Shown here: in pieces, positions 4,893 to 20,816 of the stretch
How positions within the stretch are numbered: the first letter of the stretch is position 1
Layout of the letters: each line of letters starts with the position of its first letter
Virus record (IMG/VR): IMGVR_UViG_2565956607_000008
Span: 1 to 20,816 of that record
Direction: 5' to 3' (one strand)
Origin: a virus
Taxonomy: Duplodnaviria; Heunggongvirae; Uroviricota; Caudoviricetes
DNA length: 20,816 nt
Program-made: the position numbers and the translations under genes
The notes under the pieces: generated by a model
Told to the model about the DNA's origin: nothing
What the model saw: the letters and a program-made list of their open reading frames with translations, nothing else
Databases searched by the model: none

Positions 4893-4928
4893 CTTTAGAC
4901 GTAAGTATTGAATTCTCTGGGGTATGAA

Positions 4929-6245: not shown

Positions 6246-6252
6246 TTTTTAT

Positions 6253-6280
6253 GCCACCCAGGATAGGGTGGCTTTTTATT
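6253..6280 (+). terminator. Intrinsic terminator after the int-cargo unit
   Basis: Hairpin GCCACCC-AGGATA-GGGTGGC followed by TTTTTATT, directly after the stop at 6243..6245. Confidence 0.6.
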
Positions 6281-6469
6281 CTAACTATGGCTACCACTAA
6301 TCCCACCATTTTCAATCCATTGAAACACAGCTTTTCTGCTATATCGCGTAGGATAAGTGAGAACTGGATTTGGGAAATTATGATCTTTACGTAAACGCCA
6401 TACTGCTGTTTTTTTCTTGCCCAGTAATTCGAATACTTCTTTCTCTTCCATAAAATCTGTAGAAGTCAT
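6281..6469 (-). CDS. xis: Excisionase-like HTH protein (about 62 aa)
   Basis: Internal ATG at 6467..6469 with GAGGTG ribosome-binding site; translation MTSTDFMEEKEVFELLGKKKTAVWRLRKDHNFPNPV... is an AlpA/Xis-type HTH; located beside int. ORF-track start at 6544 would overlap the next gene. Confidence 0.6.
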   Translation of the reverse strand: MTSTDFMEEKEVFELLGKKKTAVWRLRKDHNFPNPVLTYPTRYSRKAVFQWIENGGISGSHS

Positions 6470-6476
6470 AAGCACC

Positions 6477-6998: not shown

Positions 6999-7191
6999 CG
7001 GAGTTATCCTCGCAGCAGTAGTGAGCGCCGTCCGGGTCAGTACTTTTGAAACCGCAGATATCACACTCAATTTCGTCATGGGCTTCTTCATCGCATTCGT
7101 GACTTTCCGGATCGTCGGCTTTGTAATAACCGCCGCACAAATTGCAGCGGACTTCTGCCACATCGTCATAGTTAGTAGTCCCGGTTATCAT
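6991..7191 (-). CDS. Small highly acidic cysteine-rich protein (66 aa), zinc-ribbon-like
   Basis: Translation rich in D/E with CxxC...C...CxxC...CC; ATGA overlap with the upstream gene at 7188..7191. Confidence 0.55.
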   Translation of the reverse strand: MITGTTNYDDVAEVRCNLCGGYYKADDPESHECDEEAHDEIECDICGFKSTDPDGAHYCCEDNSDD

Positions 7192-7427
7192 TTGTCAGCC
7201 CCCTCATGTAGCTGCTCTGCGATGCACGAAAAAAAAGACTCCCGCGTATGACTTTTAAGAGCTGATGCAAACGCCGCGTTAAGAACGGCAGCATCACAGC
7301 CGTCATCGATATAGAGTGCGATTTTTTTCTCCAGGCGCGCTTTGGCTTCCTGCAGCTGCATACCCCGGCAGGCGCGCGGGATATATTCCGCAATCTGTGA
7401 AATAGCCTTTTCGTTCTGTTTAAACAT
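7188..7427 (-). CDS. Hypothetical early-operon protein (79 aa)
   Basis: ATG 7425..7427 with GAGGTGA ribosome-binding site; overlaps neighbouring genes at both ends. Confidence 0.5.
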   Translation of the reverse strand: MFKQNEKAISQIAEYIPRACRGMQLQEAKARLEKKIALYIDDGCDAAVLNAAFASALKSHTRESFFSCIAEQLHEGADK

Positions 7428-7623
7428 GCTTCACCTCGATAGGCTTGATGGTGTCGAGCAGCAGTCGGCGGCGCGTATTTTCTGCAAAGTGACGGCGCCC
7501 GGTTTCTTTGTGGTAAAACTCGTTTTTGCCGACGACCCACATCCGCTCTGTCTGGTGCAGTTTTTTTACCTTCGGACCGTCTTTGGTGATAACGGTGCCG
7601 GTATGGGTTTTTACGATTGTCAT
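7420..7623 (-). CDS. Hypothetical early-operon protein (about 67 aa)
   Basis: Internal ATG 7621..7623 preceded by GGGGAGG; ATGA overlap with the stop of the ParB-like gene. Confidence 0.5.
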   Translation of the reverse strand: MTIVKTHTGTVITKDGPKVKKLHQTERMWVVGKNEFYHKETGRRHFAENTRRRLLLDTIKPIEVKHV

Positions 7624-8405
7624 ACAGCCTCCCCAAGCACCCAACGGAGTGCGCTCGCATACTCACCCTCGGCTGATTCCAGGGCTTTTGTGATTTCTTT
7701 GCGGGTTTTCAGGCGCGGCTTTGCCTCGCCGAGGATCTGACGCTGACGCCGGGCTTTTTCATGGCCGGTTGTGCCAGCAGTTGCCGCTTCGATTTCAGAT
7801 ACCTTCTCCCGCTGCTCTTCAGGTTTAAGCGATGCCAGCTGACGCGCCTGGGTAACAGTGACCGTTCCGGACTCCACTGCATCGCGAACAGCCTGGGTGG
7901 CATCCAGCAGTGACAGCGTTGCGCGTACGGTCTGGACACTCACGCCAAACATCAGCGCTAAATCGTCCTCGTCGTGCCCGCGCTCCAGCGCATCAGCCAT
8001 TTTCTTTGCTCGGCCCAGTGGCGTATCTGCTTGGCGGATTTCGTTAGCACTTACCATCGCCTGCGCCATGCGAACGGCGGAGCCACGTTTAGCGACTGCC
8101 GGAACCAGTAACGGTTCTTTACCCTCTTTCAACAGTCGCTTGTTGGCTTCCAGTGTATGGCGCACACGCTGGCGACCATCGACTACACAAGACAGCCCTG
8201 TTTCCGGGTCTTTCCAGACGATAATCGGCTCAAGAACGCCCTGATCCATGATGTTCAGCACCATTGCCTCGCTGATAGGCAGGTGGATACGCTCATCGTA
8301 AAGCGGGTGCGTTTTGTCCGTAACCAAGTGCAGGTTTTCAGGTTCGAACGTTAAAACATTCGTTTTGCCGCTGGCGCCGTATACCACCTTTGAGTCTTTA
8401 GCCAT
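7620..8405 (-). CDS. ParB-like nuclease domain protein (261 aa)
   Basis: VVDGRQRVRHTLEA resembles the ParB/sulfiredoxin-fold arginine motif; common in lambdoid early regions. Confidence 0.65.
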   Translation of the reverse strand: MAKDSKVVYGASGKTNVLTFEPENLHLVTDKTHPLYDERIHLPISEAMVLNIMDQGVLEPIIVWKDPETGLSCVVDGRQRVRHTLEANKRLLKEGKEPLLVPAVAKRGSAVRMAQAMVSANEIRQADTPLGRAKKMADALERGHDEDDLALMFGVSVQTVRATLSLLDATQAVRDAVESGTVTVTQARQLASLKPEEQREKVSEIEAATAGTTGHEKARRQRQILGEAKPRLKTRKEITKALESAEGEYASALRWVLGEAV

Positions 8406-8704
8406 CAGAGAGCCTCTACGTTACGGAAGCTGGTGGGGCAAATTGCTTTCAAATCGCGCATTGCTTCGAGGACATGCAGATTTGTGCGCTTCTTGGTGTG
8501 TCGCTCGGTCAGACGATCACACTCTTTCGCCCAGGATTTGACCTCTGCGAGAAGGGCGTCACGTTCGGTTCGCGTCTGGCGCAGAGCTACATTCGAAACA
8601 TCGAGGACGGTAGCCAGTTCCCTGATGATTGCTGCCTGTGCTGGTGGCATAGTTTGGGCTATTTCGTACGCCTGTTTAATAAGTTGATTTGCTGTCTTAG
8701 CCAT
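8405..8704 (-). CDS. Hypothetical protein, first gene of the early-left operon (about 99 aa)
   Basis: Internal ATG 8702..8704 with GGAGAA ribosome-binding site (MAKTANQLIKQAYE...); ATGA overlap with the ParB-like gene start. Confidence 0.5.
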   Translation of the reverse strand: MAKTANQLIKQAYEIAQTMPPAQAAIIRELATVLDVSNVALRQTRTERDALLAEVKSWAKECDRLTERHTKKRTNLHVLEAMRDLKAICPTSFRNVEAL

Positions 8705-9007
8705 CTTTTGTTCTCCATCTGACGCGCTGCAACGCGTAAATTTAGGGTGCAGCAACCCAACCCATGAGAGTGGGTGAATAGCTGGTTAAAATTTCTTGCT
8801 GATGGGGAGCCGCCACTGCAATGGCGGCACGTTAGTTCTCCACACAACGGAAAGAGCACTGAAGCACTGGAAACTCACTTGACTAACACAGTGCTTTTTC
8901 CTGTTGTGTGCCGGGCTTCCACCGGCTCCCATCTGTTTTTAAAGCCACTCAGATATCGTCTGGGCTGCGTCGTCTCCGTGCATCACACGTTTTCGCGACC
9001 GCTGAAA

Positions 9008-9067
9008 TAAATCTAAAATAATTTAGTTTTTTGGTCAAGGTGAATAAACTAAATATTCTTAGTTTTC
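9008..9067. promoter_or_regulatory. Putative left operator/promoter region (OL/pL)
   Basis: Two 14-bp near-palindromes CTAAAATAATTTAG (9013..9026) and CTAAATATTCTTAG (9049..9062) sharing half-sites with the OR repeats; a leftward TTGACC / TAGATT-like promoter overlaps them. Confidence 0.45.
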
Positions 9068-9092
9068 ACCATTGATAGAGTAGAGGAAAGGA

Positions 9093-9737
9093 TTAGCGGC
9101 GCATCTGGCGGCGGTGTTCGACAACGACACCGATGATGGAAATTTTTTCAACAGCAGAGTTTAAAGCAGCAAAATCAGGGTTTAACGGGACCAATTCGAA
9201 AACCTCTTCACCATTTTCGTTGACACCCCTTGCACGGTATTTTTTAAAAGTGGCGTATTCACTACCGTTTTTGGCTACAACATAGTCCCCAGGACCTGGA
9301 CACAAGTCAGGATCCACAATGATAGTGTCTCCCTCTTTGAACTCTGGCTCCATAGATTTTCCACGTACCTTAAGAGCGAAGGTACCAAACGAATGAGCGC
9401 CGTTTGTTAAAATGTAATCCACGGCACCCTCTAAATTACGAGCATCACTTTCAGATGTCCAAGTTCCTGCTTGAACCCAACTTATGATAGGGATCTGCAT
9501 AGCGCCTAAGTTGCCAGGCGCTACATTGGAGAGTTCCTCTTTACCGGTGAGGAGAAAGTCCTCAGAAACACCAAAATACCGAGCTAATTTTGTCAGCGAG
9601 ACTCCTCCGGGTATGTTTTGGTCTTTCTCCCAGTATCCAATGGTGACATCTGTCACTCCAACAACTTTACCCAGTTGCTTCTGGGTAAGCTTACGATCCT
9701 TTCTTAATGATTTTAAACGACTTCCAAATGTGCTCAC
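9093..9737 (-). CDS. cI: CI-like prophage repressor (HTH_XRE N-terminus, S24 LexA-like peptidase C-terminus; 214 aa)
   Basis: N-terminal MSTFGSRLKSLRKDRKLTQKQLGKVVGV... HTH; C-terminal ...KVRGKSMEPEFKEGDTIIVDPD... Ser-Lys dyad region typical of autocleaving repressors; GTG start; divergent from cro. Confidence 0.85.
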   Translation of the reverse strand: MSTFGSRLKSLRKDRKLTQKQLGKVVGVTDVTIGYWEKDQNIPGGVSLTKLARYFGVSEDFLLTGKEELSNVAPGNLGAMQIPIISWVQAGTWTSESDARNLEGAVDYILTNGAHSFGTFALKVRGKSMEPEFKEGDTIIVDPDLCPGPGDYVVAKNGSEYATFKKYRARGVNENGEEVFELVPLNPDFAALNSAVEKISIIGVVVEHRRQMRR

Positions 9738-9760
9738 TGTGGTTCGCCATGTTATGAAAA

Positions 9761-9824
9761 CTAAATTATCTTAGCTTTAATTGACCTAAATTTGCTTTGG
9801 TCTTAATATCTAAATAAATTTAGG
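9761..9824. promoter_or_regulatory. Putative right operator region (OR) with three repressor-binding palindromes
   Basis: CTAAATTATCTTAG (9761..9774), CTAAATTTGCTTTGG (9786..9800), CTAAATAAATTTAG (9810..9823), spaced about 24 bp apart between the divergent cI and cro starts. Confidence 0.5.
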
Positions 9825-9831
9825 AGGGTGT

Positions 9832-10041
9832 ATGACAACAACAGAGTTAGAAACGTTCTTCGGAACCCCCAACAAGGCAGCAGACTTCTTCGGTGTTTCT
9901 CCTGAGGCTTTTTATCAATGGCGAAAACGACCGGGCAGTTTGATCCCAAAAGGTCGTGCTGCAGAAGCTGCATATCGTACTAATGGGCAGCTTGTTTTTC
10001 GACCTGAACTTTACCAAAAGGCTACAGATTCAGCTGCTTGA
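9832..10041 (+). CDS. cro: Cro-like small DNA-binding regulator (69 aa)
   Basis: ATG preceded by AGGAGG at 9821..9826; divergent from cI across the operator region; small basic HTH-like protein. Confidence 0.7.
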   Translation: MTTTELETFFGTPNKAADFFGVSPEAFYQWRKRPGSLIPKGRAAEAAYRTNGQLVFRPELYQKATDSAA

Positions 10042-10186
10042 AAGTAACTACAAATCGAATTTTAAAGGGGTAGGTGTGACAAAAAAAATTGAATCAGAGG
10101 TGATAAAGCGGTTGCAAGCGCTCAACCCTGAAACGGTAAGGCTGGATGAAATGAATCGAGTAGTGACTCTGATCGGGTGGACCTTA

Positions 10187-10510
10187 TCAGAAAAACTTCC
10201 AGACACCTATAGCGATGAGAACAAAGGCAAGGATATCGAACACGACTCCGATTCGCTTGGGATTTCTCGGGTAACAAGAAATGGTTGCTGTAACCCGACC
10301 GAGGCCGTCGTACTGGAGCATTTCCTGGTAGGGGTGGTTAATCCACTCACCAATGCCCCAAAAAAAGACGCCAAGGGAAACCAGTGCTGTAGGGCCAGGA
10401 GGATATGCAGAAAGAACTCCAGTACCGTTCAGCAGAAAAACGAATGCACCAGCGACAATCAAAACTTTGTACCAGTAGTCCAGAGTCAATTTAGACAAAG
10501 GGTTATTCAT
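10187..10510 (-). CDS. Small integral membrane protein (107 aa, about 3 predicted TM helices), possible moron
   Basis: Strongly hydrophobic segments with aromatic belts. The overlapping plus-strand ORF 9956..10546 translates to Cys/Arg-rich text typical of antisense noise. Weak ribosome-binding site, so uncertain. Confidence 0.4.
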   Translation of the reverse strand: MNNPLSKLTLDYWYKVLIVAGAFVFLLNGTGVLSAYPPGPTALVSLGVFFWGIGEWINHPYQEMLQYDGLGRVTATISCYPRNPKRIGVVFDILAFVLIAIGVWKFF

Positions 10511-10568
10511 TTAATACACCGGCTGTTCCGTGGGCTAAGAAAGTGATTTTAAGCGAAGGGTTATCAAC

Positions 10569-11036
10569 ATGGTAGAACAAAAGCAAAGTTTGAAAGATGT
10601 AGTCAAGGCTATGTGTAAGTCCATACATGGTGGGCGTGAGGCTATGGCTGGCGCGCTAGGCATGACCTTAACGCAGTTCAATAACAACCTTTATGAGAAA
10701 AATGGTTGTCGTTTCTTCGAAGTCAGCGAACTGGAAGCGATGGAGGACATTTCCAACACGTCGTTACTGGCTGACTACTTCGCTCGCCGTCGTGGTGCTC
10801 TGCTGGTGGATGTTCCGCACCTGGAAGAACTGGACCGCGTGGACTTATTTAGCCGGGCAATGCGTACCTCTGCCGCCAGGGGGCAGGTTGATCAGATTAT
10901 CGAACAGGCGCTTGAAGATGGCGTTATTGAAAGGCACGAGGCCGAAGAAATCATGGTGCATCACCGCCGTCACCTGGCAGCTCGTGAAGAAGAGATTGCC
11001 GCAATCATCACGCTTTTTTCACGCAAAAAGAAGTGA
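10569..11036 (+). CDS. CII-like phage regulatory protein (CP76/YdaT-like family; 155 aa)
   Basis: Position downstream of cro; N-terminal pattern (LKDVVKAMCKSIHGGREAMAGALGMTLTQFNN) recalled as the phage CP76-type CII family. Recollection, not a search. Confidence 0.6.
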   Translation: MVEQKQSLKDVVKAMCKSIHGGREAMAGALGMTLTQFNNNLYEKNGCRFFEVSELEAMEDISNTSLLADYFARRRGALLVDVPHLEELDRVDLFSRAMRTSAARGQVDQIIEQALEDGVIERHEAEEIMVHHRRHLAAREEEIAAIITLFSRKKK

Positions 11037-11273
11037 CGCCAGCGAGTTGCAGCTCCTGGCGTCGTGGCGTGTCGTTATCAGTGGAGATTACTAACGCATG
11101 AACAGTTTATCAACACAGTACCGCAGGTCGCAACTTGTAGCGCGTCCGGTTCCTGGTGGATCAGGGCCGGTGCAGTTCGTGTATGGGGTAAGAGTACCAG
11201 GCGGGTTCGAGCCTGTCTGCTACCAGTTTGCTCAGTGGGTGGTAGGGGACTTTAACGGCCAGGCGGAGAAAGT

Positions 11274-11453
11274 ATGCGAGAACTTAACCGATGGTTCAGA
11301 GATCACTACGGTGTCCCGGTCAGGGTCATACGCTGGGAGCCCCAAACACAGCGCGTTATATACCTGCGTGAAGGGTACGAGCATGAATGCTTTAGCCCCC
11401 TCGAGCAATTCAGACGTAAATTCAGAGAAATAAAGGACGATCATGAGCACTAA
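11274..11453 (+). CDS. Small basic protein (59 aa), below the ORF-track size cut-off
   Basis: ATG 11274 preceded by GGAG; translation MRELNRWFRDHYGVPVRVIRWEPQTQRVIYLREGYEHECFSPLEQFRRKFREIKDDHEH; its stop overlaps the start of the replication gene. The alternative ORF 11098..11433 looks low-complexity. Confidence 0.35.
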   Translation: MRELNRWFRDHYGVPVRVIRWEPQTQRVIYLREGYEHECFSPLEQFRRKFREIKDDHEH

Positions 11454-12396
11454 ATTAACAGGATACGTCTGGGACGCTTGTGCATCTTCGGGGATGAAGC
11501 TATCCAGCGTGGCAATCATGGCGCGCCTGGCTGACTTCAGCAACGATGAGGGTGTTTGCTGGCCTTCTATTGCGACCATATCCCGTCAGATTGGCGCTGG
11601 TGAAAGTACTGTCAGAACGGCGATAGCTGCACTTGAGAAAGAGGGGTGGCTCACTCGTACGCAGCGCCGCAACGGCAACCGTAATGCATCGAACGTCTAC
11701 CAGCTCAACGTTTCCAAACTACAGAAAGCGGCATTTTCTCACCTGTCAGTTTCTGACACATCAAAATCTGACGCGTCAAAATCTGATGCGTCAAAAATTG
11801 ACCCCTCAAAATTTGATGCGTCGGAATCCATCAAAAAAACCGGTTTTGACCCGTCAGAATCTGGTGGGGATCCGTCAGTAAAATCAACTACTGATCCATC
11901 AGATATAAATCCTTCTTGTCCGGACGCTTCGCAACCGGACGAACAGGGCTCTGCTGATGAATTTCTGTCACGACATCCTGACGCGGTGGTGTACAGCGCT
12001 GCAAAGCGGCAGTGGGGCAGCCAGGACGATTTAACCTGCGCTGAGTTCATTTGGGGAAAAATTATCAGCATGTACGAACTGGCGGCTGAAAGTGATGGTG
12101 AGGTAGTTCGCCCTAAAGAACCAAACTGGACCGCATGGGCGAATGAGGTTCGCCTGATGGTGATGCAGGACGGGAGAACCCATAAACAAATTTGCTCACT
12201 TTTCAAGCGCGCCAACAAAGATTCGTTCTGGTGTAAAAACGTGCTCAGCCCGTCGAAGCTGCGGGAAAAATGGGATGAGCTGTCGTTAAAACTATCTGCT
12301 CCACTCAATAGCTCCCGCCAGGAATCGTCCATTTCGCGAGCCAGCTTCGACGGGGTTGATTACTCATTGCCAGAAAACTCGGGGTTCCGCACATGA
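11443..12396 (+). CDS. Replication initiator, lambda O-like architecture (317 aa)
   Basis: N-terminal winged-helix-like region, then pentapeptide repeats (SKSDA-like) encoded by 15-bp DNA iterons, then C-terminal domain; stop overlaps the dam start (ATGA). Confidence 0.7.
   Translation: MSTKLTGYVWDACASSGMKLSSVAIMARLADFSNDEGVCWPSIATISRQIGAGESTVRTAIAALEKEGWLTRTQRRNGNRNASNVYQLNVSKLQKAAFSHLSVSDTSKSDASKSDASKIDPSKFDASESIKKTGFDPSESGGDPSVKSTTDPSDINPSCPDASQPDEQGSADEFLSRHPDAVVYSAAKRQWGSQDDLTCAEFIWGKIISMYELAAESDGEVVRPKEPNWTAWANEVRLMVMQDGRTHKQICSLFKRANKDSFWCKNVLSPSKLREKWDELSLKLSAPLNSSRQESSISRASFDGVDYSLPENSGFRT
11751..11835. repeat. Iteron array inside the replication gene (putative prophage origin)
   Basis: Four to five tandem 15-bp units TCAAAATCTGACGCG / TCAAAATCTGATGCG / TCAAAAATTGACCCC / TCAAAATTTGATGCG containing TGACGCGTCA-type palindromes, followed by an A-rich stretch. 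Confidence 0.55.
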
Positions 12397-13202
12397 GCAA
12401 GCCATTTCTGAAATGGGCTGGTGGAAAGTATACCCAGCTGGCTGACCTGTTCGTGCATATCCCGGCAGGGAAACGCCTGATAGATCCATTCGTTGGTGGT
12501 GGGTCAGTATTCCTGAACAGCGAAAAGCACGCAGATTACCTGCTGGCGGACGTTAACCCGGACCTGATTAATCTGTATCAGATGTTAGCGGTCGTGCCGG
12601 ATGAAGTGGAATTGAAGGCCCGCTGGATGTTCGAGCACATGCGGTCACCAGATGGTTATGAGCTGATCCGTTCCGAGTTCAACGCTCAGACGCTGGATGC
12701 TACTGAACGCGCAGCTGCATTCCTGTATCTCAACCGGCATTGCTTCAATGGCCTGATGCGCTACAACCAGGCTAACAAATTCAATGTGGGCTGGGGAGGC
12801 TACAAGGCTCCGTATTACCCGATGGATGAGATGAAAGCCTTCGCGGCTATGGCGCATAACTGCGTATTCATGACTGCTGATTACCGTCGGACAATCAGCC
12901 TGGCCGGGAAAGGGGATGTGGTTTACTGCGATCCGCCTTACGAACCGATGCCGGGAACAGCCGGATTCACTGCCTACGCCGCTGGTGGGTTTAACTGGGA
13001 GAACCAGGTAGACCTGGCGAAGCAATGTGTATCTGCCTTTCACCGCGGGGCTCGGGTAGTAATTTCTAACTCATCCGCACCGAAGGTTCTCGATCTGTAC
13101 CGGGAGCATGGTTTTAACCTGCAATTCATCAAAGCGCGCCGTTCGATCTCCTGCAAAAGCAGTACGCGGGAAGTCGCCAAAGATGTCGTGGCTATCCTGT
13201 GA
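12393..13202 (+). CDS. dam: DNA adenine methyltransferase, Dam family (N6-adenine, orphan; 269 aa)
   Basis: Motif FLKWAGGK near the N-terminus and catalytic DPPY (VYCDPPYEP); no adjacent restriction endonuclease gene. Confidence 0.9.
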   Translation: MSKPFLKWAGGKYTQLADLFVHIPAGKRLIDPFVGGGSVFLNSEKHADYLLADVNPDLINLYQMLAVVPDEVELKARWMFEHMRSPDGYELIRSEFNAQTLDATERAAAFLYLNRHCFNGLMRYNQANKFNVGWGGYKAPYYPMDEMKAFAAMAHNCVFMTADYRRTISLAGKGDVVYCDPPYEPMPGTAGFTAYAAGGFNWENQVDLAKQCVSAFHRGARVVISNSSAPKVLDLYREHGFNLQFIKARRSISCKSSTREVAKDVVAIL

Positions 13203-13226
13203 GCTGCCTGCCGTGGAGAAAATGAC

Positions 13227-14207
13227 ATGAGAGCATTACTCACTCCTGAAATTGCCCCACGCATGGGCATTGTTCTGCTTCGCCCTGGCGCCGATCTGAT
13301 GCCGATGTTCAGGAGAGGGCGGGTACTGATTGAGCCTGCACCGGAAAAATACAGTGAATACGCAACCGGCGCCATTCCTCCCGCCACGCAGCCACTGGCA
13401 GAAGACCCGGTTTTGAAACCAGTATTCGAAAACCACGACGTCATTCTGCGTGCGGGGGGGATTAGCTCGCTGGAGGCCGAGCTGGAGCGTCGTTTTGAAT
13501 GCCAGTACCCGCACGGCTCATGGCACAGTGAAAATTTTACGCTGTTCCGGCATGAGCCTGGCAGCATCCGGCTTTGCTGGGCCTGCGACAACCTGGTGCG
13601 AGATCAGTACACAGAGACGCTGGCAGGCATTGCGCGTGAGAACCTGGTATCCTGGCTGATAAAGGTCATCCGCTCACAACTGGGGTTCAACGAAGACCAT
13701 CAACTGACGATCCCGGAGTTGTGCTGGTGGCTGGTTATAAACAATCTGGCGCACGTCATTCCTGAATCGCTGGCCCGGAAAGCCCTGCGATTGCCGGAAA
13801 TAAAGCATCAACCAGTGATGAAGGAGAGCGATATTGTGCCGGAGCCAGCGGCGAGCGAAGTGGTGCAGAAAAAGATTCTCGGTCTTCGCGTAGATCCTGA
13901 AACGCCGGAATCATTCATGCTGCGACCAAAGCGTCGCCGCTGGGTAAACGAGAGCTGGACGCGCTGGGTTAAGTCCCAGCAGTGTGTCTGCTGTAACAAA
14001 CAAGCAGATGATCCCCATCACCTGATAGGCCACGGACAAGGTGGAATGGGAACAAAAGCGCATGACCTGTTTGTGTTGCCGCTTTGCAGAGCGCATCACG
14101 ACGAGTTGCACGCTGACACCGTGGCATTTGAGGAGAAGCACGGCTCACAGCTGGAGCTGCTGTTTCGATTTCTGGATCGTTCGCTGGCAATTGGCGTGCT
14201 GGCTTAA
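13227..14207 (+). CDS. DUF968-like phage protein with C-terminal HNH/zinc-binding motif (326 aa)
   Basis: C-terminal CVCC...HHLIGHGQGGMGTKAHDLFVLPLCRAHHDELH pattern; position in the nin-like region between replication genes and Q. Confidence 0.65.
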   Translation: MRALLTPEIAPRMGIVLLRPGADLMPMFRRGRVLIEPAPEKYSEYATGAIPPATQPLAEDPVLKPVFENHDVILRAGGISSLEAELERRFECQYPHGSWHSENFTLFRHEPGSIRLCWACDNLVRDQYTETLAGIARENLVSWLIKVIRSQLGFNEDHQLTIPELCWWLVINNLAHVIPESLARKALRLPEIKHQPVMKESDIVPEPAASEVVQKKILGLRVDPETPESFMLRPKRRRWVNESWTRWVKSQQCVCCNKQADDPHHLIGHGQGGMGTKAHDLFVLPLCRAHHDELHADTVAFEEKHGSQLELLFRFLDRSLAIGVLA

Positions 14208-14225
14208 TTCAGTGGAGATGAGTTA

Positions 14226-14570
14226 ATGCGTGATATGTATGAAATTTTAGACCGCTGGGGAGCATGGGCTGCAGCTGATAGTAGTGGTGTTGATTGGAAA
14301 CCCATTGCCGCAGGTTTTAAAGGTTTGTTACCTCATGGAAAGAAAACACGTCATCAATGCGATGATGATGAAGGAATCATGATTGACGGCTGTGTAGCGC
14401 GATTGCGGAAGTATAAGCCAGAAGAGTATGAGTTAATAATTGCTCATTTTGTTATTGGTTTCTCATTAAGAAGCATCGCGAAGAAACGGAAGTGTTCTGA
14501 TGGGACCATCAGGAAGGAATTGCAGACTGCAATGGGGTTTGTAGATGGTTGTTTAGAAATGGTTAACTGA
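14226..14570 (+). CDS. Late-gene antitermination protein Q (QuuD-like family; 114 aa)
   Basis: MRD...LDRWGAWAA...DWKPIAAGFKGL...RHQCDDDEG...DGCVARL...CSDGTIRKELQTAMGFVDGCL closely follows the pattern I recall for DLP12-type Q antiterminators. Confidence 0.8.
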   Translation: MRDMYEILDRWGAWAAADSSGVDWKPIAAGFKGLLPHGKKTRHQCDDDEGIMIDGCVARLRKYKPEEYELIIAHFVIGFSLRSIAKKRKCSDGTIRKELQTAMGFVDGCLEMVN

Positions 14571-14594
14571 AGTCTTAATGTGACTTCAGTTAAC
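14562..14594. terminator. Perfect 13-bp-stem hairpin (33-bp palindrome) between convergent Q and the reverse-strand cassette
   Basis: GTTAACTGAAGTC-TTAATGT-GACTTCAGTTAAC; overlaps the Q stop codon; only weak U-tracts on either side, so it may be a bidirectional terminator or a protein-binding palindrome. Confidence 0.4.
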
Positions 14595-14606
14595 ATTAAC
14601 GGCTAA

Positions 14607-15068
14607 TTAAAAGCTTTTAAGATATTTGCTTTTGATTTTTTCACTAACACTTTGTAATTCATGCAGTGTTGTGCCAACTTTATCAGCTTCATATTTTGTG
14701 TCATTGGTACATGCTTGGCGCAACTCTGCTATGAAACCTGTATCTTTTGTGCGGCTTGCATCAAGGAGTTGAATGCGTTCACATATAAACTCAACATGCC
14801 GTACGGACGATGTAAATATGAAATAAGATACTCTTTTGTCTTTTTCTTTATTCTCAAGTAGTTCCAGCATTTCACTATAAATGAAATCTAACTTGTAAAA
14901 CAACTCGTCTATCAATCTGTTTATTTCAAGTTTTTTGAGATTGTTTGCATTATTTTTCCGCGCCAAGTAGGCAGTAACTATCCATCCAATGATAGTTAAA
15001 CATATGCCCACAATAGCAATTATGGTAGCTGGTAGTGCCCATAAATTTGGAGTAACGGCTTGTTCCAT
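14607..15068 (-). CDS. Cassette gene C: single-pass membrane protein with helical cytoplasmic domain (153 aa)
   Basis: N-terminal hydrophobic helix (LWALPATIIAIVGICLTIIGWIVTAYLA) then charged helical region; 1-nt TAATG overlap with gene B; GAGGGATG ribosome-binding site; AT-rich. Confidence 0.7.
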   Translation of the reverse strand: MEQAVTPNLWALPATIIAIVGICLTIIGWIVTAYLARKNNANNLKKLEINRLIDELFYKLDFIYSEMLELLENKEKDKRVSYFIFTSSVRHVEFICERIQLLDASRTKDTGFIAELRQACTNDTKYEADKVGTTLHELQSVSEKIKSKYLKSF

Positions 15069-15385
15069 TATTTGGCATCCCTCAGAGCATCATTGATATA
15101 AGTAACAACCTCGGCAACTAATGCCGGATCCTTACTTTTAAGATTTTTCTTTAGGTTGTTAATCTTATCTTTGCTGATTCCCTTTCGCACCAGTCCACCA
15201 AAGGCCTCCTCCAAAAATGAGGATCCATACCCGAAAACCCCGTCAAAGTCAACGCAAATTTCATCATTTTCCAGTATTGCAGGAACTAAATAAAATTCGC
15301 GGAATTTTTCGCCACTATTCTCTCCAAGCGACTCGTAGCGAGGGCCAGGATATCTGGAGAATTCCTTGATATATAAAGTTTTCAT
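15068..15385 (-). CDS. Cassette gene B: STAS-like (DUF4325-like) small protein (105 aa)
   Basis: VDFDGVFGYGSSFLEEAFGGL parallels the anti-sigma-factor-antagonist motif around the phosphorylatable serine; strong AAGGAGAAG ribosome-binding site; ATGA overlap with gene A. Confidence 0.7.
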   Translation of the reverse strand: MKTLYIKEFSRYPGPRYESLGENSGEKFREFYLVPAILENDEICVDFDGVFGYGSSFLEEAFGGLVRKGISKDKINNLKKNLKSKDPALVAEVVTYINDALRDAK

Positions 15386-16482
15386 GCCGCTTCTCCTTCA
15401 GTTGGTAGTGGCACACTCCACTCAACAATTGTACCATTGATGGATTTATGAGCATCCCACATCAATTCGGGCCTTGCTTTCTTCCTTTTAGTATATCTGT
15501 AGTTCCCCTTGTTTGATATGATTCTGAGTTGGGCATGTGTAAAATTATCTATAATTGATTGTAAATCCGTGCCGCCTTTCCCTCTGTAACCAAGTTTTGT
15601 TCTTGTGCGTTTAACCTGTAATGATGCTTTTATATGCTCTGAATCTAATTCAATAGGCTTGCCTATAATTTCAATAAGTTTTGATAAAACTCTTTCTCCT
15701 TGAGTTAATTTCAAAGTTTTGGGAATTCCAACTCCTAAATCGCATATGGATAAAATCAATTTATTATTCATTATTGCTGCAAAACACCACCATTTATTTT
15801 TAATGTTGTTCTTTTGCTTGTCGTATAGATCATCTCTATATGCGTGCTCTACCGAGTTGGACATCGCCTCAATTAGAGGTCTGTATAAATTAGTGTAATC
15901 CGTTCCCATTTTCTCAGTTACTGCTTCTAATAGTTTCCCAGCAATTGTAGAATCAACCAGTTCACCTCTAATAACCTCCCAGCACTTAACAGATGGGTTC
16001 TCTTTCATCTCTCGACCTTTTACCCCAAATGCAGAATATATACCAATACGGTTAAGTACGCTATCAACTACATGATGTTCGCCTTTCTGTGTAGTTTTGA
16101 ATGGAGGGCGAGTTACAGTGTATCTTATATCTGGATAGTTACTTTTTAAACTCTCCAGTTTTGCTAGTAAATATAATCCTGCAGCGGCCGATATGTAAAT
16201 CGTATTTCTGAAGCAAACATATATTTTTTGAGTTTTAAACTGCTCTTGCTTGGCTTTTTTTTCAATATTTTCAATAAAACTTATTACGTTGTCATGGTAA
16301 TTAGAGTTATAGATATCAAGAATAGTAGGTGCAACTATTTTTTCAGAATTTGATTTTCGTATGTTACCATTACGTTTGTATCTTTTGTGTTCGGTTGACT
16401 TTTTGCTTGCGTTTGCACGGAGAAACCTTTTTCTCCTTATTCTTTTTAACACTGAAGTATAGAGCTGTTCTATTTTTTTCAT
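15382..16482 (-). CDS. Cassette gene A: protein with basic N-terminal region and C-terminal GHKL/HATPase-like ATP-binding domain (366 aa)
   Basis: AAGGAG ribosome-binding site 8 nt upstream; N-box-like EAMSNSVEHAY (E205..N209..H213), G1-like CDLGVGI (D248xGxG), G2-like GYRGKGGTDL (about 299..308); AT-rich. Confidence 0.7.
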   Translation of the reverse strand: MKKIEQLYTSVLKRIRRKRFLRANASKKSTEHKRYKRNGNIRKSNSEKIVAPTILDIYNSNYHDNVISFIENIEKKAKQEQFKTQKIYVCFRNTIYISAAAGLYLLAKLESLKSNYPDIRYTVTRPPFKTTQKGEHHVVDSVLNRIGIYSAFGVKGREMKENPSVKCWEVIRGELVDSTIAGKLLEAVTEKMGTDYTNLYRPLIEAMSNSVEHAYRDDLYDKQKNNIKNKWWCFAAIMNNKLILSICDLGVGIPKTLKLTQGERVLSKLIEIIGKPIELDSEHIKASLQVKRTRTKLGYRGKGGTDLQSIIDNFTHAQLRIISNKGNYRYTKRKKARPELMWDAHKSINGTIVEWSVPLPTEGEAA

Positions 16483-16707
16483 TTTACTCGACTCCTTGAT
16501 GTAATAATCAGCTCAGTTTACAAAAACACTAACGCGTACGCAAAAACTATCGTAATCTGTTAAGAGTGGTCACTTCGACACGAACTTAAAACATATTGAA
16601 GCCTCGCTTTTGCGGGTTTTGTTCCGTTCAGGGCTCTTGGGTTGAGATGTTCTGCATGACACATCGCAAGTAAGCATCTTCTGGCGCCTTTGACAGAGTG
16701 TTACATA

Positions 16708-16737
16708 TTGACTAACACAAAGTTTACAAATTAGATT
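16708..16737 (+). promoter_or_regulatory. Putative late promoter (pR'-like)
   Basis: TTGACT (16708..16713), 17-18 bp spacer, TTAGAT/TAGATT (16731..16737); upstream of a non-coding leader ending in terminators before the lysis genes. Sequence-only prediction. Confidence 0.3.
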
Positions 16738-17010
16738 ATCGACATGGTGAATCCCCCTATGCGGTGGGGCGACCAGTCACTTACAGTGATCTGTAAATGC
16801 AGCGCGGGCCATGTCGACTGGGACATGCTCACCGGGAGGCACCCGGCACCATACAATGCTACTAAGCTATTTGGTAGTGGGGTTGCCGTTTCGGCTTCTC
16901 CAGCTATGTTTAAAAGGTAGTAACGGAAAACGAGCGCTCTCCTGGTAAATCGGTAGCTCGGACTATTAGGTGCGCCTCGTTCCGTTGCAGAATCAGTATT
17001 GCCTACCTTC

Positions 17011-17037
17011 TGCCCGCCCCTCTGAGCGGGCTTTTTT
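17011..17037 (+). terminator. Intrinsic terminator (tR'-like) in the late leader
   Basis: GCCCGC-CCCTCTGA-GCGGGC followed by TTTTTTT. Confidence 0.6.
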
Positions 17038-17083
17038 TCGCCATGAATAAGTCTCCCCGGCAAGATGAGGAACAAATCATTTG

Positions 17084-17113
17084 AGGCTGCGCTTATGCGC
17101 GGCCTTTTTCATT
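17084..17113 (+). terminator. Second intrinsic terminator upstream of the holin
   Basis: GGCTGCGC-TTAT-GCGCGGCC (8-bp stem with one G-U pair) followed by TTTTTCATTT. Confidence 0.5.
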
Positions 17114-17216
17114 TCAGGCTCACGGGAATCATCATCGATAAAGCTCGTTGTTAAATCAGCCCGATGGGCCTGACCCTTTCAAACACACAGCACCCCGTTA
17201 ACCCGGAGGTGAACCT

Positions 17217-17528
17217 ATGGCAAAGCATATGCAAGACAAAGAAAGCATGGCCGGAATCACCTGGCTGGCTCTGCTGATCATTGCTGGCTGGGGCGGCCTT
17301 GTCCGATTCCTGATGGATGTGAAGCAGGGCAAAGCGAAATGGAGTTGGATAAATGCTTTTGCGCAGATTGTGGTTTCGGCGTTTACCGGGGTCATTGGTG
17401 GGCTCATCAGCATTGAAGGTGGCCTGAGTATTTACATGATACTGGCCACGGCCGGTATCAGTGGCGCTATGGGTTCCGTAGCGCTCACGTATTTCTGGGA
17501 ACGAATTACCGGAGTGAAAGCACAATGA
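17217..17528 (+). CDS. Holin (103 aa, multi-TM)
   Basis: GGAGGTG ribosome-binding site; hydrophobic helices with charged C-terminus; immediately upstream of and overlapping (ATGA) the endolysin gene. Confidence 0.75.
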   Translation: MAKHMQDKESMAGITWLALLIIAGWGGLVRFLMDVKQGKAKWSWINAFAQIVVSAFTGVIGGLISIEGGLSIYMILATAGISGAMGSVALTYFWERITGVKAQ

Positions 17529-18064
17529 CAGCAGAACAGATTATCGAGGGGATCCTCGGCAAAGAGGGTGGTTATGTCGATCACCCCTCTGATAAAGGCG
17601 GGCCAACCCGCTGGGGCATCACGCAAACCACAGCTCGCGCACATGGCTACACCGGTGATATGCGAAACCTGCCCAGGGAAACAGCAAAGCAAATCCTGCT
17701 GAGCGATTACTGGACCGGCCCCCGGTTCGACCAGGTAGCAGCTCTATCTACGTTACTGGCAGACGAGCTTTGCGACACTGGCGTGAACATGGGGCCCAGC
17801 GTCGCCAGTAAGTTTTTCCAGCGCTGGCTCACTGCCCTGAACATGCGCGGGAAGCTTTATCCAGACCTTATCCCAGATGGCGCGATTGGACCCCGAACCA
17901 TCACCGCTCTGAAGGGGTATCTTTCTGCCCGCGGGAAAGAAGGCGAGCTGGTTTTGCTAAGAGCATTGAATTGCAGTCAGGGCGCCAGATACCTCGAACT
18001 GGCGGAGGGCCGCGAAGCCAACGAGGATTTTCTCTACGGCTGGGTTAAGGAGCGTGTCCTGTGA
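17525..18064 (+). CDS. Endolysin, GH108 family with peptidoglycan-binding domain (179 aa)
   Basis: N-terminal EGGYVDHPSDKGGPTRWGITQ is the hallmark of glycoside hydrolase family 108. Confidence 0.85.
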   Translation: MTAEQIIEGILGKEGGYVDHPSDKGGPTRWGITQTTARAHGYTGDMRNLPRETAKQILLSDYWTGPRFDQVAALSTLLADELCDTGVNMGPSVASKFFQRWLTALNMRGKLYPDLIPDGAIGPRTITALKGYLSARGKEGELVLLRALNCSQGARYLELAEGREANEDFLYGWVKERVL

Positions 18065-18405
18065 AGATGATCATTTTCGCTTTGCTCGTGCTGGTGGCTG
18101 TGCTCGTTCTGTTACTTCTGCGCAAATATACCCGGCTGGAGTTCGTAGGCCATGCCAGCCTGCTGCTGAAAACATGGTCTGTAAAGCTGGGAGCTATCGG
18201 CGCGCTGGTTGGTGTATGGGCGCAGTCGTTCCCGGATGCTGCGCTGCACGCCTGGGCGGTGCTGCCGCCGGATATCAAAAACATCCTGCCGCCAAACATC
18301 GTTGCGTTGATTAGCCCTGCGCTGGTGGTGCTGGCCGTACTATCGCAATACGTACGCCAGCCAGCATTGAAAGAAAAGGCCGACGAACTGAAGGAGCAGC
18401 AATGA
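18061..18405 (+). CDS. Membrane protein in the lysis cassette (114 aa), function unclear
   Basis: Overlaps the endolysin stop (GTGA); N-terminal and internal hydrophobic helices; could be an accessory holin/antiholin-type protein. Confidence 0.5.
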   Translation: MKMIIFALLVLVAVLVLLLLRKYTRLEFVGHASLLLKTWSVKLGAIGALVGVWAQSFPDAALHAWAVLPPDIKNILPPNIVALISPALVVLAVLSQYVRQPALKEKADELKEQQ

Positions 18406-18677
18406 GCTTTGAAATTATCGCGGGACTGGTGGTCGTCATCCTGGGTGCTATTGCTGGCGCGTTCGGCATTGGTCATGCTCGCGGGGCCAGTAAGGCGAAA
18501 GCCAAAGCTGATCAGCAACGTACCGAAGAGAACGCCGCTGCTACTGTCGCCGCGGCAGAACGCCGTGCTGAAGTCACGAAAGGGGCAAGCGATGTACAGG
18601 AAGACGTTAAGCGTATGGGCGATGACGATGTTGATCGCGAGCTGCGCGAAGGATTTACCCGCCCCGGTAGTCGTTGA
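18402..18677 (+). CDS. i-spanin (Rz-like; 91 aa)
   Basis: AAGGAG ribosome-binding site; N-terminal TM helix followed by charged, Ala-rich periplasmic region. Confidence 0.6.
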   Translation: MSFEIIAGLVVVILGAIAGAFGIGHARGASKAKAKADQQRTEENAAATVAAAERRAEVTKGASDVQEDVKRMGDDDVDRELREGFTRPGSR

Positions 18678-18807
18678 TACGGCCTGCAGCTGGGTGAGGA
18701 TCATCTACCTGACCGACCACGATATTGACGTGATGGACCGTCAGACCAAGCGAGACATTCTGGCGCACAACAAAGCAGTAGTAGTCAACTGCCAGAAATT
18801 AAAGTGA
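18592..18807 (+). CDS. o-spanin (Rz1-like lipoprotein; about 71 aa) in the +1 frame, overlapping and extending beyond the i-spanin
   Basis: ATG 18592 preceded by AAAGGGG; signal peptide MYRKTLSVWAMTMLIAS followed by Cys (lipobox IASC); mature part Pro/Val-rich. Confidence 0.55.
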   Translation: MYRKTLSVWAMTMLIASCAKDLPAPVVVDTACSWVRIIYLTDHDIDVMDRQTKRDILAHNKAVVVNCQKLK

Positions 18808-18905
18808 CAATTCTCATACTTTTTTAAGACTAATCTTAATTAAGGGGTTGCCAGTGGATAAAGTGTTGCTGCTGCAATTGGCAGTATCGCTCTGGGGCAA
18901 TACCT

Positions 18906-19115
18906 ATGGGTAATTATTATTATGTTAATAAAAATGCGCAGTCAAATGGTGATCATGAGGTACACGTAAGTTCCTGTGCCAGATTACCCGCAGTTGAAAA
19001 CAGGCTTTTCCTTGGGATATTTGAATCGTGTTCACCCGCTGTGCGCGAAGCCAAGAAAACCTACACGCAATCAAATGGCTGTTATTATTGCTGTTATGCG
19101 TGTCATACGTCATGA
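18906..19115 (+). CDS. Possible small Cys/Tyr-rich protein (69 aa)
   Basis: AT-rich ORF with weak ribosome-binding site, followed by an intrinsic terminator; unusual YYY and CYYCCYAC composition. Low confidence. Confidence 0.25.
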   Translation: MGNYYYVNKNAQSNGDHEVHVSSCARLPAVENRLFLGIFESCSPAVREAKKTYTQSNGCYYCCYACHTS

Positions 19116-19137
19116 CAATTAGTATGAATCTAACCAA

Positions 19138-19160
19138 GGTCGCCAATGGCGGCCTTTTTT
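19138..19160 (+). terminator. Intrinsic terminator
   Basis: GGTCGCC-AAT-GGCGGCC (7-bp stem with one G-U pair) followed by TTTTTT. Confidence 0.5.
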
Positions 19161-19184
19161 ATTGCCAGAAGCAGGAGAAGAATC

Positions 19185-19385
19185 ATGTTAACAGTAAAAG
19201 TAATGTCATCAGATGGTGGCGAAGAAATCCATAGCGGCCTGAGCGTTGGTTTCAACCCCAATCAGCAGAGTATCTCAGTGTCTGGAATGGACCAGAACGT
19301 GTTCCTGAAGCAGGGGGAGGTGGCCTATGTGATGAACGCAAACGGCAAGACCATTTCCCGTTACGAACACAGGACCCAGCAGTAG
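19185..19385 (+). CDS. Hypothetical small protein (about 66 aa)
   Basis: ATG 19185 preceded by AGGAG; the ORF-track start at 19146 lies inside the terminator hairpin, so the shorter start is preferred. Confidence 0.4.
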   Translation: MLTVKVMSSDGGEEIHSGLSVGFNPNQQSISVSGMDQNVFLKQGEVAYVMNANGKTISRYEHRTQQ

Positions 19386-19821
19386 GCATTACAGAAGCTC
19401 CTGAGCTAAGGGGCTTCGATAATGCTAAACCGAAAAATCGGGTTAAAACCTGATAAAAACCCCGTGGAGGAAATCCCAAAGCTACGGGGTGCTGCAGGGG
19501 CAGCCAATGTCGGAGTTTAGTCAGATTGTGAGGCATTTTACTACTTGTTTTGAGTAAAAATAGAAGGTCTGACACTACAGGGAGTGGCTCATCCCTGAGC
19601 TCACGGATAGAACAGTGGACTTTGTCATGGCAGAGCAAAGTCATAAGATAGTTTAGATAACACTCCGGATATGACAAGCGTAGCGGGTGTAAATCAGTTA
19701 ACGGAGCTCAGCGGCTAAGGCATCAAGCATTCACTGAGTATCGTTGATAATGCTATAGTTCACCAGAAAGAGCAGATTGCATGGTGTCAGGAGACACAGC
19801 TCATATTTAGTGGATTTGCCC

Positions 19822-20727
19822 CTATATTTCCAGACACCTGTCATCACTTAACCCATTACTGGCCCGCTGCCGTAGATATTCCCGTGGCGAGCGATAACCC
19901 AGTGCACTATGCGGATGCCATTCGTTATAATGCTCGAACGCCTCTGCAAGGTTCTTTGCTGCCGTTAACCCGTCTGGTTTGGGCATGATACTGATGTAAT
20001 CACGCTTTATCGTTTTCACGAAGCTCTCTGCTATGCCGTTACTCTCCGGACTCCGCACCGCCGTGTTCTTCGGTTCAAGTCCCAACATCCGGGCGAACTG
20101 GCGTGTTTCATTAGCCCGGTAGCATGAACCATTATCCGTCAGCCACTCCACTGGAGATGTCGGAAGCTCGCTGCCGAAGCGGCGTTCCACCGCTCCCAGC
20201 ATGACGTCCTGTACTGTTTCACTGTTGAAGCCGCCCGTAGTGACCGCCCAGTGCAGTGCCTCACGGTCACAGCAGTCCAGCGCGAACGTGACTCGCAGTC
20301 TCTCTCCGTTATCACAGCAGAACTCGAACCCGTCAGAGCACCATCGCTGATTGCTTTCTTTCACGGCCACTCTGCCTGTATGTGCCCGTTTCGATGGCGG
20401 TACAGCAGGTTTTCGCTCAAGCAACAGCGCATTCTGGCGCATGATCCGGTAAACACGTTTGGCATTGATCGCAGGCATACCATCAAGTTCTGCCTGTCTG
20501 CGAAGCAGCGCCCATACCCGACGATAACCATACGTGGGCAGCTCTCCGATAACATGGTGTATACGGAGAAGCACATCCGTATCATCAGTGTGACGACTGC
20601 GGCGGCCATCCATCCAGTCATCGGTTCGTCTGAGAATGACGTGCAACTGCGCACGCGACACCCGGAGACAACGGCTGACTAAGCTTACTCCCCATCCCCG
20701 GGCAATAAGGGCGCGTGCGCTATCCAC
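19822..20727 (-). CDS. insD: IS2 transposase OrfB (InsD; 301 aa)
   Basis: Translation [43 protein letters not shown]... with DDE-type integrase core matches IS2 InsD as I recall it. Confidence 0.95.
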
Positions 20728-20816
20728 TTTTTTGCACGCCCATATTCAACGGCTTCTTTAAGGAGTTCATTTTCCATCGTTTTTTTGCCGAGCAGGCGCT
20801 GGAGTTCTTTAATCTG
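20685..20816 (-). CDS. insC: IS2 OrfA (InsC), 3' portion; N-terminus lies beyond the window
   Basis: Reverse-strand translation ...[43 protein letters not shown] then stop at 20685..20687; overlaps insD in the frameshift region. Confidence 0.85.

Follow-up and report, generated by a model that had tools for sequence, protein, structure and literature searches.

An IS2 insertion beside a conserved non-coding cassette in the post-lysis region of an Escherichia coli lambdoid prophage

We analysed a stretch of 20,816 nt of viral DNA (IMG/VR record IMGVR_UViG_2565956607_000008, positions 1 to 20,816; hereafter, the window), which carries a Klebsiella-type, HK97-like, Q-regulated lambdoid prophage beside argW in Escherichia coli and stops inside a copy of the insertion sequence IS2. 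Our reading, to which we assign a probability of about 0.7, has two layers: the IS2 copy is a recent and probably tolerated arrival in a spacer, and the DNA poor in open reading frames (ORFs) ahead of it is a conserved part of the post-lysis cassette, with proposed RNA elements of its own. An earlier note on this DNA had stated that IS2 begins at 19811, that the preceding stretch (19386-19810) has no convincing ORF, and that two copies of GATAATGCTA occur there; the three statements were correct, since the identity of IS2, the ORF scan and the repeat count were confirmed. The note had further proposed that the insertion may have inactivated the prophage. We lean against inactivation, a simple and mostly tolerated insertion being the most likely outcome.

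The IS2 insertion and its empty site

Intact relatives, with which the earlier note had proposed a comparison, are available in E. coli p10A and p10B, where the same prophage occurs without IS2 at this site and with its terminase and structural genes intact. Over window positions 3447-19810, p10A is 99.988% identical (2 mismatches in 16,364 bp). Its empty site reads CATATTTAG / AACGTCAGGG, the slash marking the insertion point and the right side beginning with AACGTC; in longer context it reads ...GCTCATATTTAG / AACGTCAGGGTTAAG.... Furthermore, no IS2 was found here in more than 20 further genomes carrying the region, the IS2 junction had no coverage among the complete E. coli genomes searched, and neither junction pattern occurs in GTDB species representatives or JGI metagenomes. 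With three window proteins as queries, solely IS2-free versions of the region or other IS2 sites were retrieved. A scan of both strands revealed no ORF of at least 20 codons across the insertion point. We judge the insertion to be recent, private to the source lineage, and intergenic, since the twins and the more than 20 genomes are IS2-free and no ORF spans the site.

Regarding its position, IS2 lies after base 19810; the last conserved element ends 56 nt earlier, and a small ORF for a membrane protein starts about 20 nt further on. The insertion is 1.1 kb downstream of the spanin gene and oriented against late transcription. In p10A, the site is followed, in order, by a 62-aa ORF (phrog_36556), a 74-aa ORF (phrog_38275), DUF2560 and HNH, and thereafter by a P27-family TerS (about 1.6 kb downstream), TerL, portal, ClpP-type protease, major capsid, head-tail and tail genes. 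The genes from HNH through tail are intact in p10A and p10B, and start 0.3-1.6 kb past the site. The earlier note had placed IS2 where packaging genes would be expected after a lysis cassette; the element is indeed downstream of the lysis cassette and upstream of the position that packaging genes occupy in relatives, but the gene order of the twin indicates that it does not replace them. With IS2 in a variable spacer, where it takes the place of no gene, the harm to be expected, if any, is transcriptional polarity.

The first ORF past the site (L004 3615-3806 in p10A), about 20 nt to the right of the IS2 site, encodes a very hydrophobic protein of 62-63 aa (phrog_36556). Within it lies a further ORF of 24 codons (MKKTALGWLLAALFFGIIGWLCGY) that has a good GGAG Shine-Dalgarno sequence and recalls small membrane toxins; IS2 cuts the phrog_36556 ORF off from all upstream DNA. 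The p10A prophage ends on the right (L004 27957-30698) in IS26 and ISKpn26, which join to wcaM fragments, galF and an O89/O101/O162-type O-antigen cluster, and no attR side is visible at this right end. The IS2-free twin is, therefore, itself rearranged at its right end.

The right inverted repeat (IRR) of the element (TGGATTTGCCCCTATATTTCC...) begins at 19811, exactly where the earlier note had it. The IRR with its CA/TG end, orfA and orfB with the A6G window, and the DDE (rve) domain assign the element to IS2 of the IS3 family, and its features agree with the published anatomy of IS2 (IRR of 41 bp, left inverted repeat, or IRL, of 42 bp, orfA/orfB, A6G window, and figure-of-eight/minicircle pathway; PMC3299598). 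Precomputed Pfam domains of the identical 301-aa InsD protein are PF13276 HTH_21, PF00665 rve and PF13683 rve_3. Of 5426 complete E. coli genomes, 4658 hold IS2 copies that match 19811-20816 at 97.5-99.6% identity, and no 100% match to this variant was found among the 5426 genomes. A complete 1331-bp IS2 (locus L017), flanked by the 5-bp duplication CCGAA, encodes the identical 301-aa InsD and matches the window in reverse orientation over its coordinates 326-1331 (99.6% identity, 4 mismatches in 1006). IS2 follows a copy-out-paste-in route through a figure-of-eight and a minicircle, with the OrfAB transposase made by -1 frameshifting at A6G.

The exact InsD variant is rare, being indexed in 28 blocks of a public assembly collection. 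In other E. coli (L017-L023) the same variant lies between wzi and a PAP2 gene/galF, in a Klebsiella-like wzi-wza-wzb-wzc capsule locus, which suggests a lineage that has acquired capsule as well as prophage DNA from Klebsiella. The window reaches as far as IS2 coordinate 326, and independent short-read contigs of the same variant (L021-L023, L025, L026) start at coordinates 317-328. Since these contigs break within about 10 nt of coordinate 326, the end of the window is probably a contig end caused by IS2 repeats.

Hairpins and a conserved module in the ORF-poor DNA

Exactly two copies of GATAATGCTA are present in the 20.8-kb window (19418-19427 and 19746-19755, both on the plus strand), against a chance expectation of 0.03, and none of 100 shuffles reached two. 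Both are the 3' arms of a hairpin motif of about 38 nt, which begins 2-6 nt past a stop codon and has the form (G)GCATTACAG - stem - loop - stem - YGATAATG(CT). The intact copy A starts 2 nt past the TAG stop of the 66-aa ORF, folds at -18.5 kcal/mol (RNAfold) and is the most frequent variant (42 instances; nhmmer match at 19384-19426, E=3e-9), and copy B is degenerate. In p10A, a third copy lies between DUF2560 and HNH.

An nhmmer profile built from eight instances and run on about 1.4 Mb of related loci yielded 221 matches with 81 distinct sequences. In loci with the core of the conserved module described below, all 211 matches at E<=1e-4 lie on the plus strand of the module and none on the other, and this is the late-operon strand in the window and in annotated loci. 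A stop codon is found at most 14 nt upstream of the hairpin in 179 of 180 cases. Moreover, the hairpins cluster at fixed offsets on both sides of the module and behind successive small genes.

The fold consists of an outer stem of 5 bp (CAUUA/UAAUG), a 2x2 internal loop, a variable inner stem of 9-10 bp and a loop of 3-6 nt. Among 38 distinct variants, on which fold and covariation were measured, 92.8% of cells are paired, compared with 34-47% when the partners are slid, and the covariation score is 0.284, compared with at most 0.108. Double changes affect four pairs (41 cells), and none of 500 shuffles reached that number or the covariation score. The plus-strand RNA is the more stable in 34 of 38 variants (means of -15.7 and -12.0 kcal/mol), because its G-U pairs would become A-C mismatches on the minus strand. 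Compensatory changes and strand-specific G-U pairs thus characterise the family as structured, and pairing, G-U asymmetry and strand stability together give good support to the hairpin as a sense-strand RNA element of the late transcript.

The homology of mosaic relatives breaks at the hairpin motifs, as in the zone of copy B at about 19687-19723. In this context, hairpins placed after the stops of successive cistrons would protect or process the 3' ends of late mRNA, and their conserved flanks would supply micro-homology, or linkers, for cassette exchange. We infer such a double role, as a 3'-end protecting or processing signal and as an exchange linker; the function may be that of a stabiliser, a processing site, a protein-binding site or a recombination linker.

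The motif also occurs in classical phages, including phi80 (directly after rha), mEp390, phiP27, cdtI, ST64B, Pectobacterium ZF40 and others. No feature is annotated at the motif in the five records checked (phi80, phiP27, cdtI, ST64B and FSL SP-016), no Rfam match was found for the hairpin, and its sequence strings had no matches in the searchable literature. Elizabethkingia phage EKP1 (OM284015.1 35841-35885) contains a 45-nt, 100%-identical copy of the enterobacterial motif, unexpected for a Bacteroidota host, which may reflect contamination or mislabelling.

The absence of a convincing ORF from 19386-19810 held up, as no frame is open across 59 distinct relatives and the Prokaryotic Genome Annotation Pipeline (PGAP) leaves the identical DNA of p10A blank. 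Nevertheless, the roughly 420 bp of ORF-poor DNA in the earlier note hold, together with the two structured hairpin copies, a conserved non-coding module. This module (19453-19690) is conserved in 59 distinct contexts, with divergence in both flanks; it lies between hairpins A and B, and most loci have a hairpin on both sides. Its 30-mer core (19618-19647), with which the IMG/VR loci were collected, is present in 79 IMG/VR contigs, and a 25-nt core was found in one GTDB species-representative contig only, evidently a mis-binned metagenome-assembled genome (L106, binned as Bacteroidota).

The edges of conservation coincide with two minus-strand signals, a U-tract (about 19455) and a -35 box (19677). 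The latter belongs to a promoter-like site with a 9/12 consensus match. The former follows a terminator-like hairpin that folds at -8 to -14 kcal/mol in 19 variants and is followed by U5-U8 always on the minus strand, never on the plus strand; hairpin and U-run are found in every variant in which this stretch of the module is preserved, and in relative L094 they were lost through deletion. A simple terminator scan missed this hairpin (19460-19489) because its loop exceeds 8 nt. The module would, then, be a self-contained minus-strand unit, running from promoter to intrinsic terminator and giving a prophage small RNA of about 190 nt; such an RNA would necessarily oppose the late transcript as an antisense RNA, and would fill one cassette slot as an RNA 'moron'. 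We propose this tentatively, at somewhat less than even odds, on the strength of consensus matches.

Several observations weigh against it. Promoter-like sites are not enriched here (8, compared with 4.2 +/- 2.4 in shuffles), the fold z-score is -2.05 for the minus strand and -1.85 for the plus strand, and the predicted structure of the module centre varies between variants. With a term of -0.2, RNAalifold gives the module practically no covariation, as its sequences are too much alike. That 19618-19647 is perfectly conserved among the IMG/VR loci follows in part from their collection with this very 30-mer. Furthermore, neither a covarying structure nor a described family was found for the module: Rfam gave no match to it, with cut-offs of E<=1 for the window and E<=0.1 for three variant loci, and STnc100 was the sole family in the window. 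Strings of the module core had no matches in the searchable literature, and the searched portions of the text of Klebsiella RNA interaction by ligation and sequencing (RIL-seq) papers mention no such prophage small RNA.

A rather unlikely alternative is that the module acts as a DNA site in cis (cos/packaging or protein-binding), or as a plus-strand element of the late mRNA, instead of encoding a minus-strand RNA. It lies between lysis and terminase genes, the position of cos in lambda; its best-conserved part contains a perfect 7-bp inverted repeat, GACTTTG-N11-CAAAGTC; and the plus strand folds about as well as the minus strand, with covariation that does not discriminate between them. However, the module occurs with three terminase types (Terminase_4 with a 580-aa TerL; a 144-aa TerS with a 510-aa TerL; Terminase_2 with a 552-aa TerL) and with two lysis modules, at distances from terS of about 1.4 to more than 5 kb, and a fixed place by terS or co-variation with the terminase was not found. 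Since it travels with differing lysis and terminase modules at variable distances from terS, we rejected a cos or pac site; in addition, the annotated cosQ and cos of phi80 are located elsewhere. As for an element of the plus strand only, the U5-U8 run of the GC hairpin is always on the minus strand.

A protein-coding module was likewise rejected, as no frame is open in all variants. The minus-strand ORF from the ATG at 19644 has a length of anywhere between 33 and more than 109 aa, and the variant types differ by indels that shift its frame; in the conservation table, the only frame to stay open has its variable sites at second codon positions; and in the alignment, a plus-strand mini-ORF at 19507 has no Shine-Dalgarno sequence in most variants and is variable in length.

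Very improbable is a decayed gene or a functionless, degenerate duplicate of the neighbouring cassette with the 66-aa gene: two short direct repeats at a spacing of 360-361 nt (19142-19157/19503-19518 and 19186-19202/19546-19562), two repeat units that both terminate in the hairpin motif, and the appearance of L094 as a deletion between the repeats (66-aa gene, hairpin A and minus-strand terminator gone) would fit it, but the global alignment of the two units is only about 2.5 standard deviations above shuffles (17, compared with 9.4 +/- 3.1, maximum 22), too weak for a tandem-duplication origin, and the module is better conserved than its flanks in 59 contexts and kept with many different neighbours, which is unexpected for a pseudogene. 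Through these repeats, the central part of the module is linked with the beginning of the 66-aa cassette.

Klebsiella phage KP-Rio/2015 (KX856662.1, a T7-like Drulisvirus; L002 1-162) matches the module core (19589-19687) at 89% in its first 99 nt, and the hairpin motif at positions 127-162. The record looks either like a chimera assembled in part from host-prophage DNA or like the outcome of a genuine acquisition.

Taken as a pair, the hairpin family (CAUUACAG-stem-loop-stem-YGAUAAUG) and the minus-strand small or antisense RNA 'moron' of about 190 nt appear to be undescribed. We give a little less than an even chance to a reading of both as functional RNA elements, in which the hairpins would mark the 3' end of each post-lysis cassette in many enterobacterial lambdoid phages (Klebsiella prophages, phi80, ST64B, phiP27, mEp390, ZF40), and may both process or stabilise late mRNA and serve as joints for cassette swaps. 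The repeat would offer a handle on how long phage late transcripts are partitioned and on mosaic joints at lambdoid gene boundaries, and the ORF-free module would be a candidate unannotated regulatory RNA of prophages in clinically important Klebsiella and E. coli lineages.

Expected consequences of IS2 for the prophage

The effects of IS2 would be limited to 1.33 kb of extra DNA and to Rho-dependent polarity on the packaging and structural genes. The extra DNA amounts to about 3% of a prophage of about 40.6 kb, a gain that, to judge from lambda, is probably within the tolerance of cos packaging. In lambda and phage 82, Q confers on RNA polymerase a resistance to terminators, intrinsic as well as Rho-dependent, that extends for tens of kb. 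Q-modified polymerase should, by analogy, mostly read through the polarity of IS2, and no plus-strand intrinsic terminator was predicted in the visible part of the element. The prophage is not demonstrably inactivated, since no gene or conserved element is cut and Q read-through is expected. IS2 is known to hold Rho-dependent terminators, the polarity of which is relieved by an antiterminator (galEP3 reporter, PMC3737525).

Some points count against a tolerated insertion. The expected read-through is carried over from lambda biology, and a single IS2 end falls within the window, so that the IRL, the target duplication and the downstream half of the prophage lie outside it. The other two concern rearrangement of the neighbourhood: the identical InsD variant is found in the Klebsiella-like capsule locus of other E. 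coli, and the p10A prophage copy is joined by IS26/ISKpn26 to wcaM/galF.

Among the alternatives, it is unlikely that IS2 blocks late transcription into the packaging and structural genes, leaving an element that is lysis-competent and non-productive. The element is positioned between the late promoter region (STnc100, 16715-16907) and all packaging and structural genes, and about 1.3 kb of untranslated antisense-IS2 RNA would suit Rho well as a substrate. On the other side, the operon is under a Q-family antiterminator, zero genes are interrupted, and both the small size gain and the absence of a predicted plus-strand intrinsic terminator from the visible part of IS2 speak against such a block.

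Less likely still, IS2 would be the junction of an IS2-mediated deletion or inversion, or of recombination between two IS2 copies, with a truncated prophage whose structural half is absent or elsewhere. The one visible IS2 end would allow this, and the capsule-locus copies of the rare variant together with the IS26/ISKpn26 joint of p10A keep the reading alive. However, simple insertion is the default outcome of IS2 transposition, and collinearity of the flank with the twin extends as far as the end of IS2. RefSeq numbering also gives a weak hint, from accession order only: WP_023149819-838 span from the left-island integrase (in the window, not in p10A) through the spanin, and WP_023149919-907 run reversed from the 74-aa ORF past the site to the tail genes, as would fit one 2013 draft genome with both prophage halves on two contigs broken at IS2.

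A simple insertion into a spacer, our preferred reading, makes this IS2 copy an ordinary one, and the RNA elements beside it are modestly interesting. The insertion is of little weight, serving mainly to mark the strain and to recall that contigs of draft assemblies end in IS copies; it is also a possible natural test of Q reading through an IS.

Setting of the prophage and related systems

The prophage occupies 3447-19810 of the window, and its relatives are overwhelmingly prophages of Klebsiella. The Q antiterminator, the late-promoter leader and the lysis cassette form a single rightward operon, and the gene order of the lysis cassette (17217-18677, plus strand) is identical in p10A. A promoter-like site (16708-16737) precedes STnc100, and terminator-like (tR'-like) hairpins follow at 17012 and 17083; this region is the Q-dependent late-promoter leader of the prophage. 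The 66-aa ORF corresponds to the PGAP coding sequence WP_024176412.1 in p10A, and the public assembly collection has the identical protein in 2826 indexed blocks. The coordinates of the features are collected in Table 1.

Table 1. Features of the window and their coordinates.
Feature	Coordinates	Strand	Remarks
Island DNA of E. coli with own integrase	1-3446		Left side of tRNA-Arg(CCU)/argW
tRNA-Arg(CCU)/argW	3447-3521		ARAGORN; sole tRNA found
Q-family antiterminator	14226-14570		PF06530, E=1.5e-46
Three-gene cargo	14607-16482	-	Between Q and lysis genes; 366 aa, 105-aa STAS-like DUF4325, 153 aa
STnc100 late-leader RNA	16715-16907	+	Rfam, 76 bits; gathering score 47
Holin	17217-17528	+	Pfam/PHROG
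GH108 endolysin	17525-18064	+	Pfam/PHROG
DUF7940/holin-like protein	18061-18405	+	Pfam/PHROG
Rz-like spanin	18402-18677	+	Pfam/PHROG
69-aa ORF	18906-19115	+	phrog_4298
Intrinsic-terminator-like hairpin	19136-19156	+	After the 69-aa ORF
66-aa ORF	19185-19385	+	phrog_3909, PHROG E=4e-36; final ORF ahead of the ORF-poor stretch
Hairpin copy A, intact	19387-19424	+	CATTA-CA-(9-bp stem, 6-nt loop)-GA-TAATG; holds first GATAATGCTA
Conserved non-coding module	19453-19690	-	Candidate RNA from about 19643 to about 19455, about 190 nt
Terminator-like hairpin	19489-19460	-	CCCCGU...ACGGGG, then U5 at 19459-19455; left edge of module
Sigma-70 promoter-like site	19650-19677	-	TTGTCA-N16-TAAACT (TTGTTA in most relatives); right edge of module
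Hairpin copy B, degenerate	19716-19754	+	Left arm and stem eroded; nhmmer E=4e-7; second GATAATGCTA (19746-19755)
TTTAG, presumed 5-bp IS2 target	19806-19810		
IS2 (IS3 family)	19811-20816	-	Rightmost 1006 bp of 1331 bp, coordinates 1331 down to 326
IS2 IRR, 41 bp	19811-19851		TGGATTTGCCCCTATATTTCCAGACACCTGTCATCACTTAACC; same as IRR of complete L017 copy
insD/orfB	19822-20727	-	301 aa
A6G frameshift window	20727-20733	-	AAAAAAG on minus strand
insC/orfA, final 132 nt	20685-20816	-	Overlaps orfB

The cargo between Q and the lysis genes occupies a slot typical for defence or moron genes; PADLOC returned zero defence-system matches for these minus-strand genes and for the integrase-adjacent gene. 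The 366-aa cargo protein appears in 366 indexed blocks of the public assembly collection and occupies the same slot in all 10 loci shown. STnc100 is also present in relatives L037, L027 and L071. In L027 (3396-4409), just about 800 nt separate it from the conserved module downstream, and this interval contains no recognisable lysis cassette, so that in some loci the module has no lysis genes before it.

On the left, one and the same prophage (99.99% identical) has different flanks: argW and another integrase island in the window, and argW and csc sucrose genes in p10A (compared over L005 1-7307). The left island of the window is identical to that of Ec42, WCHEC005784 and AR_0114. In Ec42, a different, related prophage occupies the argW site, bounded by yfdC/mlaA.

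Among known elements, the closest setting is that of HK97-/phiP27-like lambdoid prophages with HNH-TerS(P27)-TerL, here represented by the Klebsiella phages ST13-OXA48phi12.2, phi12.4 and Klebsiella phage 1 LV-2017, and by Escherichia phage vB_EcoS-733R5. They share the order of Q, late leader, lysis genes, small cassettes, DUF2560 and HNH, which continues with TerS, TerL, portal, protease and capsid, and their DNA is 85-95% identical over large parts. In contrast to these relatives, which are overwhelmingly from Klebsiella, the prophage of the window carries IS2 and resides in E. coli by argW.

The inserted element is the same as the IS2 of E. coli known from galEP3 and from classical lambda insertions, with matching IRR, orfA/orfB with A6G, and 301-aa OrfB; as in galEP3, it lies inside an operon, upstream of genes that it could silence. 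It differs from classical copies in being a rare variant at a new site, one seen in none of the other genomes examined, in being visible over 1006 of 1331 bp, and in an operon that is Q-antiterminated.

The module can be compared with lambda bor (after Rz), oop RNA and paQ antisense RNA, and with P22 sar, which are small units with their own promoter and terminator that oppose the late operon; a location between the lysis genes and the packaging region is a further likeness. Unlike bor, the module has no ORF, and it shares neither sequence similarity with bor, oop, paQ or sar nor an Rfam family; its RNA is a candidate predicted from sequence.

The hairpins, in turn, recall the intercistronic RNase III hairpins of phage T7, which are also repeated, related hairpins between cistrons, on the sense strand only and just past stops, with two stems, lower and upper, on either side of a small internal loop. 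The likeness is one of working principle only: compared with usual RNase III substrates, the hairpin of the window is shorter (5 + 9-10 bp) and known here from sequence alone, and its conserved flanks, CAUUACAG and YGAUAAUG, have no T7 counterpart. Comparative genomics of HK620, HK97 and HK022 has reportedly identified conserved boundary, or linker, sequences at the junctions of lambdoid modules. The hairpins resemble these as short conserved stretches at gene boundaries where homology breaks, at about 19687-19723 and at the DUF2560-HNH junction. In contrast to such boundary sequences, the linker here folds as a structured RNA hairpin, and its compensatory changes and G-U asymmetry argue for selection on the RNA, beyond that on a passive recombination site.

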